Virus record (IMG/VR): IMGVR_UViG_638341196_000007
Direction: 5' to 3' (one strand)
Length of the DNA: 12,669 nucleotides
Origin: a virus
Lineage: Duplodnaviria; Heunggongvirae; Uroviricota; Caudoviricetes
Numbering within the stretch: position 1 is the stretch's first letter; every line of letters starts with the position of its first letter. The translations under genes were made by a program, and so were the position numbers. The notes beneath the pieces are model-generated. The model was not told where the DNA came from and searched no databases. It saw nothing but the letters and a program-made list of their open reading frames with translations. Positions 1 through 5,947 of the stretch are shown piece after piece.

Positions 1-636
1 TCAAGCCCCGGCGACATTACCTATACCCGGAACAACGGAACCAAGTTGCGCACCCGCTAAAGCGCCTGATGCCGCCCCACCAATACCACGCGCAAGACTG
101 GATGGCTGCTGCGCCTGACCTGCACGAATGGCGCCAAGCCCCTGCAAGAGTTGCCCGGTATTATTGGCGTAGTTTTGCCCTGCTGTTGCCTGCCCTGATG
201 CCGCATTCATCCCGACATTTAGCAGGTTTCCATAATTTTGCATTTGCCCACTGAGCCAATTGTTATAAAGCATGGGCGCAATGGAAGATAACTGGTTACT
301 GGTAGCTGTTGAGCCAAGCCCCCCGGTAGCTTCTGCTGAGACAAGGTTCTGATAACGGGCCTGATCTGCCTGTGTTTTATATAAACCAGAACCAAAGAAA
401 TCATTCGCGGCTTTATTCTGCCCTTCCAGAGTCATCAGTCCTTGCAGTTGTTGTAAAGCAGGCAATCCGACTTCTGCATACGGCTTGAGATTATTCATCA
501 CCGTATTCCACTGCTCGCGCTGCAAATCAATTGCCTGCTGCTGGGCCTTCGCCTGAGCTTTAGAGGCACCACCATCACCGCCTTTTTCGTATACGGCACG
601 ATTGAGATGTTTATGAGCTATATGGGTAATTAACAT
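1..636 (-). CDS. hypothetical Gln/Gly/Ala/Asn-rich low-complexity protein (partial; C-terminus lies beyond the window start)
   Basis: ATG at 636-634 with AAGGAA-like SD upstream; start overlaps the stop of the 630-1091 gene (ATGTTAATT); frame open to position 1; composition dominated by G/A/Q/N/S after residue ~20; no family recognised. Confidence 0.5.
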   Translation of the reverse strand: MLITHIAHKHLNRAVYEKGGDGGASKAQAKAQQQAIDLQREQWNTVMNNLKPYAEVGLPALQQLQGLMTLEGQNKAANDFFGSGLYKTQADQARYQNLVSAEATGGLGSTATSNQLSSIAPMLYNNWLSGQMQNYGNLLNVGMNAASGQATAGQNYANNTGQLLQGLGAIRAGQAQQPSSLARGIGGAASGALAGAQLGSVVPGIGNVAGA

Positions 637-1091
637 TCGCTGAATTCCTTATATTGTTGCCGAGTTAACTGATAAAGCGTTACGCCGACGGGTTTACCAC
701 ATCTGATATAAGCATCATCAAGGTGACCAACACGGGTAGCGCCAAGCAAACGGATAATTGCCCGTCCATATTTCGTGGTGTCAGGAACCATAGTGATGCT
801 GTTAAGGAATGGTGAGTTTTCGAGAAGCCATTTGCAGAATAATCGATGCCCTTGCAGTGCATATTCACCACGGAATCCGGGGTCGTACACCGCATGGCAT
901 TCAACAACGCTATGCCAGAAGTTACGCACTTCATGAACGCCAGCCAGCACTAATCCTTCGTAGATGCCGAGATATACCGCATCAGGCTTGATGTAGTACG
1001 AGTGCCCCGGCTCAACAATATTTTCGGTATTGCCTGGCTCGTTAAGAAAGGCCTGTAATCGCACAGGGTTATCAATAAATTTTAGTTCCAT
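630..1091 (-). CDS. hypothetical protein (153 aa, MELKFIDNPVRL...)
   Basis: ORF track; ATG 1091-1089; stop TAA 632-630 lies inside the first codons of the next gene (translational coupling); no recognisable motif. Confidence 0.55.
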   Translation of the reverse strand: MELKFIDNPVRLQAFLNEPGNTENIVEPGHSYYIKPDAVYLGIYEGLVLAGVHEVRNFWHSVVECHAVYDPGFRGEYALQGHRLFCKWLLENSPFLNSITMVPDTTKYGRAIIRLLGATRVGHLDDAYIRCGKPVGVTLYQLTRQQYKEFSEC

Positions 1092-1667: not shown

Positions 1668-1717
1668 CACTCTCTGATGCCAGCCAGGTGTTGTGCGCAT
1701 CAATTCAGTCACATTGT

Positions 1718-1860
1718 GTTGGTTCAAAATACCGTGTTGTTGGTTCAGTGTTGGTTCAAAATACCGTGTTGTTGGTTCAGTGTTGGTTCAATAAAAAGAA
1801 TAAAATCCTTATAAAACAATACCATTTACAAATTGAACCAACTGAACCAACTGAACCAAC
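1718..1860. repeat. iteron cluster / candidate replication origin: five direct GTTGGTTCA copies (starting 1718, 1739, 1750, 1771, 1782), AT-rich spacer (1791-1833), three abutting inverted copies TGAACCAAC (1834-1860)
   Basis: Exact 9-mers with alternating 21/11-bp spacing (32-bp period) plus an inverted triplet; lies immediately 3' of the primase-helicase gene. Confidence 0.6.
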
Positions 1861-1885
1861 ACCTTTTCTACGCACATGAAGAAGC

Positions 1886-4642
1886 TCATTCTTCAGATGA
1901 GTTATAATCTCCTGGCTGGTAATTGAGTACATAAACGTTTATTTGTCGTCCCTGAATACGTGGTGATTTTCTTTGGTATCCACGACCGCTGTTTGGTGGG
2001 GTTAGCATCCCGGCTTTTTTCAACACTTCAGCAAACTGTTTTGCGTTGAAACCACATGCGATCTCCTTTTCAAATGTGGCCGGGAATGTGTAGAAAATCA
2101 TTGGGCTTTCGTCATGTTCTCCACGCTGACGGTATCCGGCTAAATCTTTGATGGGCAAATCTGCCGGGCTGTATGGAAATGGTGCAAAACGGCTAAGCCC
2201 ATAGGCATTAAGAAATGCCTCCGTTTGTTCAATAATCTGCTGATGTTCTTTGTTACCTGTGCCGAACTCGCGCAACCATGCGTTATAGCTGTGCTGTATC
2301 GCATCACGGCATGTCTGAGCATCCCAGCCTGTTACAACCTCGCCTAACAGCAATGCGGCCTCCAGAATGGCAAATCGCGCGGCTACACGGTGAACCTGCT
2401 CACCATAATCGGATGGGATCAGGTTTCTCCATCTGCTTTCGCAATCACGAACGGTTTTAATAGCCTGTTGCTGGTGGTCTGCCAGCCATTTAATCCACTC
2501 ACGCCCGGCTGCGCCGTGGTGATGCTGGTAAGCGTCTTTCAGTGCGTCTGCGTGCTGTTTTCCGTTCTGGTAATCGTGAAAGCGTACTGCTTTACTCAAC
2601 GGAATATTCAGCAGTCGCACCAGTTGCCCGGCTTTGGTTTTTCGCCCGGAAGTAGCGATAAATGTTTCTAAATCCATTTCTCCGGTGCTGATTGCCACTG
2701 TACGCCAGCGTTTTAGATCCCGGTTTCCACCATCTTTAGCGCCTTGCAGTTTCCCTACACCGTTAAATAACGCATAGGCAGACTGTGAAACGCTGACAGG
2801 ATCAGCGCCCTGACCAACTTCATCAAGCGGCATTAGTCCGTCATTGTGGGCGGCGGCCTCATTTGCCAGCCCCAGCGCGGTTCCGTACCACGTCAGCCGC
2901 AGTAAATCAGGGTTGCCGTATAAGCTGCTCGCCACGTTTGCCGTGGTGGTCTTACCTGCGCTCGACTGCTCATAGAAATGAATGCCGAACCCGTCAGCGC
3001 CCACCAGCCCAATCAATGGCGCTGCCAGTGCTGCGCCGATCCCGGTCATCATTGAATAGTTACCAAAGGCCAGACGCGCCACGTTATCACGCCAGCTTTT
3101 CGCGCTCCCTGAGACGGTATATCCGGCTGCGGCTGAGCTTCTCCCGCTGAACAGCACAGGATTTTCAGGTGTTCCGATGATTTCCCCATCAGGCATGATG
3201 TACGCTCCGCATTGCCAGACAGTGGCATGAGCAACACGCCACAATTCACGAGAGCCACTGCGTTGTAGCCAGTCTGCCAGTATTGCTCTGAGGCTGCTTT
3301 TGGTCGTGACATTTACCCCACCAGCTTTAAGTGTGCGCCATCCTTCACGTTCACCAATATCAGCCAGTGGAATGGCAGCGGTTGTCGGCGTTTCAGAACC
3401 AAACGACAGCCAGCGAAGAATGAGATACTGGTCTTTATCGTCTCTGCCAGTACCGATAACGCTTAACGGAGAACATAACCAGCTTTCGTTATTGATGATT
3501 TCTCCACTCTGGCTGTCAGCTCTCGGAGATACCCAATAAATACCATCCTCGCGGCTTTCTATTCTTGGTTTCAGTGGGTCGGTATCCATAACCTTAAAAT
3601 CGCTTCCCTCAATGGTCTGTGGCTCCTGTTTCACGCCATTACCCTGTGGTTGGTACATTGACTTATTGAACGCTTCTGTGGCGCATTTAATGCCGTGTTT
3701 TTGGTGGTAATCATTCCAGTCTGCTTTGTGATCTGTCGGGGGTAATGCCACCCATCCAGAAACAGATAAAGCTGCTTTTTCTGCTGCTATTCTCCCCGTG
3801 TTTTGTCTTCCTTCGCTGTGGTCGTTATCCGCAGCAATGATGATTTGTGCTGAAGGAAATTTATCCCGCAGTACCTGGGCGACATATAACAGGTTCCCGG
3901 CATCAATCGCCGCCACTGTCAGCGCCTCTGGACGAATTAAATGGGCAGATAATGCCGTTGCCAGCCCTTCTGCGATTAAGATGCTCTGTGTTGTTTCTGG
4001 CGCGTTTATGGCGTGATATGCCCCCCGCTTTGCTGAACCTGTCAGGAGTCTTTTTTCACCATGTGATGTAATAGTCTGTGCTGCTGTGACTGCGCCGGAT
4101 TTATCCACCAGCGCCAGCAACAGAGATCCATCGGGCAACACGGGGAATGTAAAATCACCTACCCCTTTCGCAACCAGATAATCAGATTTGCCGTTTACAG
4201 CCTTTCTGCGCATGTCATCAAACTGACGGGAAAACGTATCCCGTCTTTGTTGTTCGTCCTTCTCTGCCCTTTTCAGGCGCTCCTGTTCGCGTCGCTGGCG
4301 CTCGGTTTCCAGTTGTTCCCGTTTCTGGCTGGTGGCTTCTGGTGTTTCCGTTGTCCGGTAATCAATACCCAGAACATCAGCGGCAAGAAGCGCCGCCTCT
4401 GTTGTGTCGCAGTTATTTACGCGTTTAATTAAATCCAGCCCATCACCAGCGCCGCACTGATTACAGATGAAGCTACCGCGCCCGTTGTCATCGAACCGGA
4501 ATCGATCTTTGCCCCCACATGCAGGGCAGGGAGCATGACGGCGCGGAGAGTCAGGGACATTTATGTTCAGGCAGCCCAGCACATGAGGCCAGTTGTTTTC
4601 AGACGCACTGATAACCTGACGGATAAGATCAATGTTTCGCAT
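1886..4642 (-). CDS. DNA primase/helicase of phage-satellite type: N-terminal Zn-ribbon (CPACGG...CNQCG), charged E/R/Q-rich linker, TOPRIM (IIIAADNDH), C-terminal P-loop NTPase (SSAGKTT Walker A-like, LMPLDEVG Walker B-like)
   Basis: 2.75-kb ORF; ATG at 4642-4640 (the ORF track starts at the in-frame GTG 4645-4643); motifs read from the translation; stop TGA 1888-1886. Confidence 0.9.
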   Translation of the reverse strand: MRNIDLIRQVISASENNWPHVLGCLNINVPDSPRRHAPCPACGGKDRFRFDDNGRGSFICNQCGAGDGLDLIKRVNNCDTTEAALLAADVLGIDYRTTETPEATSQKREQLETERQRREQERLKRAEKDEQQRRDTFSRQFDDMRRKAVNGKSDYLVAKGVGDFTFPVLPDGSLLLALVDKSGAVTAAQTITSHGEKRLLTGSAKRGAYHAINAPETTQSILIAEGLATALSAHLIRPEALTVAAIDAGNLLYVAQVLRDKFPSAQIIIAADNDHSEGRQNTGRIAAEKAALSVSGWVALPPTDHKADWNDYHQKHGIKCATEAFNKSMYQPQGNGVKQEPQTIEGSDFKVMDTDPLKPRIESREDGIYWVSPRADSQSGEIINNESWLCSPLSVIGTGRDDKDQYLILRWLSFGSETPTTAAIPLADIGEREGWRTLKAGGVNVTTKSSLRAILADWLQRSGSRELWRVAHATVWQCGAYIMPDGEIIGTPENPVLFSGRSSAAAGYTVSGSAKSWRDNVARLAFGNYSMMTGIGAALAAPLIGLVGADGFGIHFYEQSSAGKTTTANVASSLYGNPDLLRLTWYGTALGLANEAAAHNDGLMPLDEVGQGADPVSVSQSAYALFNGVGKLQGAKDGGNRDLKRWRTVAISTGEMDLETFIATSGRKTKAGQLVRLLNIPLSKAVRFHDYQNGKQHADALKDAYQHHHGAAGREWIKWLADHQQQAIKTVRDCESRWRNLIPSDYGEQVHRVAARFAILEAALLLGEVVTGWDAQTCRDAIQHSYNAWLREFGTGNKEHQQIIEQTEAFLNAYGLSRFAPFPYSPADLPIKDLAGYRQRGEHDESPMIFYTFPATFEKEIACGFNAKQFAEVLKKAGMLTPPNSGRGYQRKSPRIQGRQINVYVLNYQPGDYNSSEE

Positions 4643-5000
4643 CACCGTACCCCACGTGGTCTATAGCGTTTGCGATATGGCTAACCAGCATCTGCCACTT
4701 GGTTATTCCGTAATCAGTCAGCATGCCATCATTGTTTAGCCACATATCAAATTCAGCGGTTGTCGCAAGTTTCCACTTATCGCCGTGGACAGTCCTCATT
4801 GCTGGGTACATGAATGCGCAAATCAGATCACAAACATCTGACGGCTTCAGAGATGTAGTAATGGTGCGTCCCTCTGGCGTCTGAATTGCCATTTTCTCTT
4901 CACCAGTAGAATGAAGGTTATGAATCCACACAGCACCAGCAATCTTTGCCACCGGCTCTCCGATTGCGGAGCTAAGCGCCATTTCTGCATTTTCACGCAT
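4629..5000 (-). CDS. hypothetical protein (123 aa)
   Basis: ATG 5000-4998 with GGGAGG SD; its stop overlaps the primase start by about 14 nt. Confidence 0.55.
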   Translation of the reverse strand: MRENAEMALSSAIGEPVAKIAGAVWIHNLHSTGEEKMAIQTPEGRTITTSLKPSDVCDLICAFMYPAMRTVHGDKWKLATTAEFDMWLNNDGMLTDYGITKWQMLVSHIANAIDHVGYGDAKH

Positions 5001-5344: not shown

Positions 5345-5947
5345 TCAGTGCGTCACTGGTTCCGCTGGCATGCCGTTTTCATTCAGTTCAGCTATAAAGC
5401 TGTTGTGAAGTTCAGCAAGCGTTTCACGACCAAATGGAGTCAGTGCTCCTTGTTCCACATCCATCATGGCTCTGTAGAAAATGATGGCGCGTTCTGTGCC
5501 AGACTCGATGCCAAAACGTTCTATCATCGCTCCCTCAATGTTGTTTGCCATAGCGAGGCGCTCTGCTACTGGATACAGCGGCATGGCGACGATGCCGTTG
5601 GAATAAACAGCCACTTCGGAAGGATTGCCAGTATCATCAATGATGCTGACAGTGCCGTTTTCCTCTCTCATTTCCAGCATGAATACTGTTGCGATCAGCC
5701 ATCTCCACATAATGACGTTATGCTGTGATGTGTAATCGAAATATCCCTGGTTGCCGCCATCGGCAATAGCGAGATGTATTGACATACCTTCATCTGGTTT
5801 ATCGTCATAATCCCCGGCATCCAGACGATTTACGGCATCAATATATGAGACGGCCTCAACGCGTTCTGTCATGCCATCGTTGCTGCGGTACATGATGTTT
5901 ACGCCGTCAGGCGTTGCTTCTGTATGGAAAGTTAAGAAATTATTCAT
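5345..5947 (-). CDS. hypothetical protein (200 aa, MNNFLTFHTE...)
   Basis: ATG 5947-5945 with GAGG SD, preferred over the TTG at 6052 used by the ORF track because the upstream gene's stop (5942-5940) falls inside codons 2-3, the same coupling pattern as the neighbours. Confidence 0.5.
   Translation of the reverse strand: MNNFLTFHTEATPDGVNIMYRSNDGMTERVEAVSYIDAVNRLDAGDYDDKPDEGMSIHLAIADGGNQGYFDYTSQHNVIMWRWLIATVFMLEMREENGTVSIIDDTGNPSEVAVYSNGIVAMPLYPVAERLAMANNIEGAMIERFGIESGTERAIIFYRAMMDVEQGALTPFGRETLAELHNSFIAELNENGMPAEPVTH

Follow-up and report, generated by a model that had tools for sequence, protein, structure and literature searches.

The DNA analyzed here, IMG/VR virus record IMGVR_UViG_638341196_000007 (12,669 nucleotides; "the window" throughout), carries at positions 1718-1860 an array of eight perfect copies of the 9-mer GTTGGTTCA next to the gene for a primase-helicase initiator (Pri-Rep). 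This 143-bp array is very probably the replication origin, or the initiator-binding core of the origin, of an integrated island that resembles the phage-inducible chromosomal islands (PICIs) and occupies the thrW site of Escherichia coli. Support for this assignment comes from the anatomy of the array, its conservation among relatives, the homology of the initiator to the Rep proteins of Staphylococcus aureus pathogenicity islands (SaPIs), the predicted fold of the initiator C-terminus, and the co-variation of the iteron word with a short "wing" segment of that C-terminus. The original prediction had recognized in iterons placed around an AT-rich element beside an initiator gene the origin architecture of satellites and PICIs, and the published systems have the same layout (PMC9371898, PMC6092414).

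Exact matching located five direct and three abutting inverted copies of the 9-mer, in agreement with the arrangement proposed earlier. On the plus strand the copies start at 1718, 1739, 1750, 1771 and 1782, with steps that alternate between 21 and 11 nt, and on the minus strand they start at 1834, 1843 and 1852, each abutting the next. The two sets enclose a spacer, estimated before at about 40 bp and measured here at 43 nt, which is the most AT-rich 43-mer of the window (window mean 52% A+T). The initiator open reading frame (ORF) runs on the minus strand and ends with a stop codon 25 nt away from the closest iteron, so the array is indeed directly downstream of the primase-helicase. A 32-bp periodicity had also been noted; it is present and can be refined to a perfect tandem duplication, which lifts the initiator-distal set from three to five copies (coordinates in Table 1). 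When up to one mismatch was allowed, GTTGGTTCA had 10 matches in the 12.7-kb window compared with 2.9 ± 1.7 in 200 dinucleotide-preserving shuffles of the whole window, none of which reached 10 (0/200). The two matches beyond the eight are scattered singletons, and no other 200-nt stretch of the window holds a comparable pile-up of one word. In terms of helix geometry, the 9-bp step rotates successive sites by about -51 degrees, while the 11- and 21-bp steps keep them on one face; we speculate that this asymmetry, which relatives share, reflects different roles of the two sets, with ring assembly on one and same-face anchoring or bending on the other.

The initiator ORF is intact, with the Zn-ribbon cysteines, the Toprim AEG and DND motifs and the Walker A motif AGKT all present in its translation. 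Pfam assigns it a Zn ribbon (Zn_Ribbon_Prim, PF08273, residues 35-70), a Toprim domain (Toprim_3, PF13362, residues 222-319) and a DUF927 helicase (residues 366-644, E = 5e-45), and it matches phrog_1139, a full-length family of phage and satellite primases (E = 4e-176). Homology to SaPIbov1 Rep (PDB 8tch; phmmer E = 4.4e-11) spans residues 404-814, and a weaker match was obtained to Cch, the helicase of the staphylococcal cassette chromosome mec (SCCmec) (5dgk). The N-terminal part resembles the alpha protein of satellite P4, with 33% identity over residues 8-362 only (E = 2e-41) and no similarity past residue 362. Given the P4 alpha-like N-terminus and the SaPI Rep-like residues 404-814, the protein is an evolutionary chimera in which a P4-type primase is joined to a SaPI-type self-loading helicase. 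An AlphaFold2 (AF2) model of residues 740-919, built with 34 homologues (mean predicted local distance difference test score, pLDDT, 81.7), shows a helical bundle followed by a strand-helix-helix-extended hairpin-strand arrangement, in which the heptapeptide QRKSPRI sits in the extended strand preceding the last β-strand, i.e., in the wing. The C-terminus is thus predicted to adopt a winged-helix-like fold, as in SaPI Reps.

SaPI Reps are self-loading helicases that bind and melt their origin without ATP; their C-terminal winged helix binds short iterons located immediately 3' of rep, with at least two iterons per side of an AT-rich region and in opposite orientation (PMC9371898). The Rep-ori systems of SaPIbov1 (Rep, PDB 8tch), SaPI1 (Rep1) and SaPI5 (PriRep5) of S. 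aureus were used for comparison. The window has a Rep-type DUF927 helicase, an array immediately 3' of its gene, and opposed iterons on the two sides of an AT-rich region (3 + 5). As far as sequence can tell, every testable feature of a SaPI/PICI Rep-ori system is present, and the origin itself holds nothing unexpected. The differences lie elsewhere: the window system has a Gram-negative host, iterons of 9 bp compared with 5-6 bp in SaPIs, and a primase part of P4 alpha type, and its similarity to SaPI Rep ends at residue 814, short of the winged-helix part. In addition, the two sides of the array are asymmetric (abutting versus phased at 11 and 21 nt), and a second iteron module is often present.

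To assess conservation, one genome per GTDB species was surveyed, which yielded 77 loci encoding relatives of the initiator, mostly in Enterobacterales and with 50-99% protein identity; 58 of these loci had usable downstream sequence. About 55 of the 58 have the layout of the window right after the orthologous gene. The iterons begin 24-30 nt past the stop codon in most loci (21-47 nt at the extremes), after a linker with a conserved CACATRCGTAG-like motif in the alignments. The proximal set comprises two or three abutting iterons at a 9-nt step, and up to seven in locus L062; the spacer measures 42-45 nt and is 65-90% A+T in most loci, with the core TGTTTTATAAGGnTTTTATT common to the closer relatives; and the inverted distal iterons lie at +0, +11 and +32, in some loci with a fourth at +53. 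Position, spacing and orientation are kept across many genera at 50-80% protein identity. The CCTGGCTGG motif parts the first from the second module in relatives; in the window, the sequence past it is unrelated.

On the distal side, the five copies reflect a duplication specific to this strain: in the nearest relatives, E. coli PEC301 and ABU 83972, one 32-bp unit is missing and the array has 3 + 3 copies. All sampled full-coverage matches in complete E. coli genomes span 164 nt (a few 173-174) compared with 196 nt in the query. Iteron number varies more widely as well: L062, from an uncultured Erwinia metagenome-assembled genome, has the seven abutting copies mentioned above, and four distal copies occur in L036, L049 and L050, with two versus four on the two sides in L036. 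An HNH-endonuclease-containing insertion was observed in the primase gene region of L034 (Yersinia pekkanenii).

The expectation that iteron specificity would co-vary with the initiator was borne out across the roughly 58 related loci, where the word changes together with a seven-residue C-terminal segment. At least eight iteron words are in use across lineages, and all copies of an element switch together; within one element both arms and the second module use the same word, apart from occasional degenerate copies. The word of most loci, GTTGGTTCA, pairs with QRKSPR[IV] in 39/39 loci, the window included, and GTTGTCTCA pairs with QGRV-RE in all five loci that carry it. Further pairings are GTCGGTTCA with QRKTPRI or TRK[TS]LRI, ACGGGTTAY with K[RK]KALK[RK][IM], GTGGGTTAT with KKKALRKM, GGTCGGTT with TKKTLVV, GTCGGGTA with TKKTLVH, and CTTATCCCA with WQIRTPRLKH.

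The comparison of the GTTGGTTCA and GTTGTCTCA classes is particularly localized. Over residues 1-790, proteins of the GTTGTCTCA class differ from those of the GTTGGTTCA class no more than the latter differ among themselves, with an identity in the helicase core of about 0.96 both within the GTTGGTTCA class and between the classes, and a slight divergence is confined to the last ~110 residues. Only seven columns of the whole alignment (840, 892, 893, 894, 895, 897 and 911) have disjoint residues in the two classes, and five of the seven fall within residues 891-897. When the last 240 nt of the gene and 190 nt downstream were compared, the fixed DNA differences proved to be mainly those wing codons and iteron positions 5-6; spacer and linker are otherwise common to both classes. 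A different pattern is seen in the ACGGGTTAY class, whose proteins are 95-99% identical to those of the window class in the helicase core and 43-57% identical from about residue 808, which suggests that the 3' end of the gene and the origin were exchanged together as one cassette. Other island proteins were considered as iteron binders and rejected, as none was found that tracks the iteron class or that is consistently, let alone universally, present.

In the mechanism we propose, Pri-Rep would recognize each 9-bp iteron via its C-terminal wing (residues 891-897), and Rep oligomers would form on both of the opposed iteron sets. The AT-rich spacer between them would then melt, the DUF927-type helicase would load itself, as in SaPI Reps, and the fused Toprim primase would prime synthesis.

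Several points weigh against the array being the origin that works in this way. Binding, melting, helicase loading and replication are all steps that we infer, as is initiation at the primase-proximal module rather than at the second one, and in complete islands the word recurs in a second module, which lies beside perC at a distance of 8.5 kb. The winged-helix assignment depends on a predicted model and not on a solved structure. Two loci, L058 and L051, have the gene and lack the array within 4 kb. The wing codons lie less than 150 nt from the iterons, and some of their co-variation could reflect co-inheritance of one recombination block; the sharply localized differences of the GTTGTCTCA class argue against this. 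Independent class switches also appear to be few, roughly seven, since many loci share descent. Finally, the integrase of the window copy is split by an insertion sequence (IS), and the origin may therefore sit in an element no longer able to excise.

The second module was found beyond the left end of the window in complete islands, in E. coli PEC301 at positions 5597-5717 of locus L001. It uses the same word, GTTGGTTCA, and consists of three abutting copies, a 43-nt AT-rich spacer and three copies at 21-nt steps. The module stands immediately before perC, in an orientation opposite to that of the primase-proximal module; over the spacer and the abutting set the two are 84% identical. Modules at perC were also detected in L080 (6000-6125) and L081 (6001-6108), and in deletion variants without the primase the perC module is the sole one remaining. 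Relatives outside E. coli have the two modules side by side, at most 290 nt from the stop codon, with perC next. It looks as if, in the E. coli island, cargo had been placed between the two modules. The presence of a second, inverted module at perC is compatible with a two-site mechanism resembling that of P4 ori and crr.

These observations can be combined in a joint reading, offered tentatively and with rather more chance of being wrong than right, in which the array is half of a bipartite and exchangeable replication-specificity system. The last ~30-100 initiator codons and the adjacent iterons may travel as one cassette, and this cassette may have diversified within Enterobacterales into eight or more specificity groups with a nearly one-to-one "code", in which, to give two examples, the change RKSP-I to GRV-E goes with GG-TT to GT-CT at iteron positions 5-6 and S894T goes with T3C. 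The modules of the thrW island may have been pulled 8.5 kb apart and inverted, so as to bracket cargo of P22-type ejection proteins. Rep bound at both modules would, by analogy with P4 alpha at ori and crr, possibly loop or handcuff the DNA, and might also sit on the promoter region of perC. As the integrase of this copy is broken by the IS, firing of the origin may amplify the flanking chromosome in situ.

The second module is also central to the alternative that survives best, namely that the array is a cis enhancer like P4 crr, from which Rep loops the DNA to the perC module, the latter initiating replication or being co-required for it. In P4, ori lies kilobases from crr. The likeness extends to several components: the Zn-ribbon and Toprim primase is homologous to that of P4 alpha; an iteron cluster comes right behind the initiator gene, crr of P4 starting 46 nt past the alpha stop codon; a second cluster with the same word lies kilobases away in complete thrW islands, and in relatives outside E. 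coli the adjacent modules always share their word; and the island has a C4-type immunity RNA and a P4-family integrase. However, the array has an AT-rich centre and opposed iterons instead of the two 120-bp direct repeats of crr, within which the P4 iteron is the octamer TGTTCACC. In many relatives (for example L003-like loci, L013, L021 and L023) the first module is the only one in the ~400 nt past the stop codon. P4 alpha has no relationship to the helicase and DNA-binding parts: the window helicase belongs to DUF927, and neither the D5/SF3-type helicase of P4 alpha nor its C-terminal origin-binding domain is matched. Homologues of sid, delta, psu and epsilon were absent from the Pfam and PHROG matches of the window ORFs. 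Beyond the primase domain, the island does not seem to be a P4-type replicon, and we consider the enhancer role unlikely.

Still less probable is that the iterons mainly control copy number, incompatibility ("handcuffing") or transcription and do not form an origin; Rep bound to them might, for instance, act on genes downstream, and the module at perC might work likewise. Plasmid iterons serve both as origin and as control elements, and such a role would agree with the different copy numbers among strains (three to five on one side, seven on the other in L062) and with the position of the second module, which abuts the perC start codon. Against it, a promoter scan of 1050-2000 found no promoter-like site of the sigma-70 type and placed two terminator-like hairpins outside the array, and the next gene on the same strand lies ~450 nt downstream, past a terminator-like hairpin. 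The AT-rich centre, the spacer fixed at 42-45 nt and the opposed orientation are, moreover, features of an origin.

The inverted repeats might instead act as a hairpin, be it an RNA element, a single-strand initiation site or a cruciform, with the sequence changes being compensatory. As single-stranded DNA, 1710-1870 does fold better than shuffles (-29 kcal/mol, z = -3.9), as expected from the inverted repeats, and both arms switch together between lineages. Yet the direct copies within the arms and the second module change in concert too, which pairing does not require; the arms are out of register (9-nt versus 11- and 21-nt steps) and of unequal copy number (3 vs 5 in the window, 7 vs 3 in L062, 2 vs 4 in L036); and the co-variation with the protein would be left unexplained. 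A scan with Rfam gathering scores gave no family at 1700-1880. The co-varying direct copies, the second module and the out-of-register arms rule out the RNA or hairpin explanation for practical purposes and leave it only a very slight chance. As for a functionless repeat made by chance or slippage, slippage or unequal exchange does happen at this site, as the additional 32-bp unit proves, but the shuffle statistics and the conservation of position, spacing and orientation exclude a chance origin, and this explanation is the least credible of all.

An experimentally tested origin of this design is that of the Gram-negative PICI EcCICFT073 (Fillol-Salom et al. 2018). Gram-negative PICIs are reported to share the origin layout, and its deletion in EcCICFT073 impaired the maintenance of a pri-ori plasmid (PMC6092414). 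Like the window island, EcCICFT073 has int, alpA, unidirectional genes, pri-rep, an origin 3' of pri-rep, and perC, and its two iteron sets surround an AT-rich stretch (L083 7000-7240, E. coli CFT073; word CTGTCTACC / GGTAGACAG), with further copies of the word more downstream of the D5-type Pri-Rep. Its initiator, unlike that of the window, is a D5_N/DUF5906/Pox_D5 protein; the two Pri-Reps have different Pfam domains and no significant similarity (BLASTP best E = 1.2). Origins of this design are thus found with two initiator families. The thrW island also differs in its P22-type ejection-protein genes, while EcCICFT073 itself has capsid-like genes. The iteron word, thrW and the ejection genes were not found in the tables and supplements of PMC6092414, although the word is possibly drawn in its Fig. 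2a, and a literature search on thrW, perC and DUF927 satellites turned up nothing specific to this origin.

Iteron plasmids (pPS10, R6K, RK2, F) likewise fall into specificity groups and have initiator-binding words beside an AT-rich unwinding element. They use dimeric WH1-WH2 Reps as initiators, which recruit host DnaB, in contrast to the window initiator, which by its domains would itself be helicase and primase.

All sizeable genes of the window are on the minus strand, in the order integrase, DUF6387, AlpA-like protein, AntA-domain protein, several small ORFs and the Pri-Rep ORF; beyond the array follow a small ORF, DUF2824 and a P22 gp7-type ejection protein. This is the gene order of Gram-negative PICIs (int, alpA, pri-rep, ori; one direction, ~10-15 kb). 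Complete E. coli copies adjoin tRNA-Thr (thrW) and proA; they extend past the window through ejection/injection genes of gp20 and gp16 type up to perC, their last gene. From int to perC they measure ~18 kb, which is above the usual PICI size of ~10-15 kb. It is unusual for a PICI-like island to carry virion ejection proteins. In the window copy, the integrase N-terminus resumes past the IS at 12503-12669, and because the IS splits the integrase, this copy is probably unable to excise by itself. The C4 and isrK RNA matches (Table 1) fall inside a 355-residue ORF named "ash family protein" by RefSeq; only residues 106-233 match Ash-like families, so the long N-terminal part of this ORF is probably non-coding.

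A search of a phage collection with the whole window and with the C-terminal 139 residues of the initiator returned only patchy P22-like matches and two records. One fragment of ~107 nt (7405-7524, plus strand) runs antisense to the genes of the island and shares 85-88% identity with gene 3, the small-terminase gene, of P22-like phages; the similarity begins at the P22 pac site. There the window has GAAGGTTTTTGTGGAGTCACTA, which matches the P22 pac 22-mer at 16/22 positions and the pac core at only 8/12, and which fits 16/17 positions of the published pseudo-pac pattern (PMC11226127). An exact or near-exact P22 pac site (22-mer, at most three mismatches) is absent from the window. The terS fragment, the pac-like word and the ejection-protein genes hint at a P22-like helper.

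Between the origin and the next gene (ORF 1108-1269) lies an unannotated gap of ~450 nt, of which ~330 nt (1373-1700) are specific to Escherichia islands. This region contains a perfect 9-1-9 palindrome, ACTACGAAA-T-TTTCGTAGT, at 1591-1609, a related imperfect palindrome at 1650-1664, 57 nt from the first, and a terminator-like hairpin on the minus strand at 1388-1373. The two palindromes look like putative operators for a dimeric regulator.

Table 1. Features of the origin region, the initiator gene and the surrounding island, in window coordinates.
Feature	Position	Strand	Remarks
Initiator-distal iteron set	1718-1790	+	Five GTTGGTTCA (TGAACCAAC in primase sense); steps 21, 11, 21, 11 nt
Initiator-proximal iteron set	1834-1860	-	Three abutting GTTGGTTCA in primase sense; 9-nt step
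AT-rich spacer, presumed DNA unwinding element	1791-1833		43 nt, 84% A+T
Tandem duplication, 32-bp unit	1716-1779	+	1716-1747 = 1748-1779, 100% identity
Linker, stop codon to first iteron	1861-1885		25 nt; conserved (T)TCACATRCGTAG, then A/T-rich run
CCTGGCTGG motif (primase sense)	1680-1688		Parts the first origin module from the adjacent second module in relatives
Pri-Rep initiator gene	1886-4645	-	919 residues; Pfam, PHROG and structure-database sequence matches
C-terminal winged-helix-like domain, presumed iteron-binding	1919-2101	-	Residues 849-909
QRKSPRI codons, co-varying segment	1955-1975	-	Residues 891-897; alignments, model
P22 gp7-type DNA ejection protein (PF25688) and DUF2824 genes	1-1091	-	
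C4 antisense RNA (P4/P1-type immunity RNA)	7064-7151	-	Rfam, 81 bits, above gathering score
isrK RNA	7214-7291	-	Rfam, 69 bits, above gathering score
AlpA-like excisionase/regulator	9118-9315	-	
int-alpA RNA	10409-10476	-	Rfam, 47 bits, above gathering score
P4-family tyrosine integrase	10537-11589, continuing 12503-12669	-	
IS element, ~0.9 kb	11596-12502	-	Two overlapping transposase ORFs on this strand; interrupts integrase

Origins of this type are textbook knowledge in SaPIs and known from reports on Gram-negative PICIs, and finding one here is no surprise. What the analysis adds is that a widespread family of islands in Enterobacterales relies on a SaPI-type (DUF927) self-loading initiator fused to a P4-type primase, while the sole experimentally tested E. 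coli PICI origin, that of EcCICFT073, uses an unrelated initiator. Natural variation also maps the recognition determinant with unusual sharpness, to seven residues on the protein side and two or three base positions on the DNA side, and such a map could predict incompatibility or cross-activation between islands. The second module at perC, together with the P22-related cargo, suggests a coupling of replication, gene control and helper exploitation in these islands.

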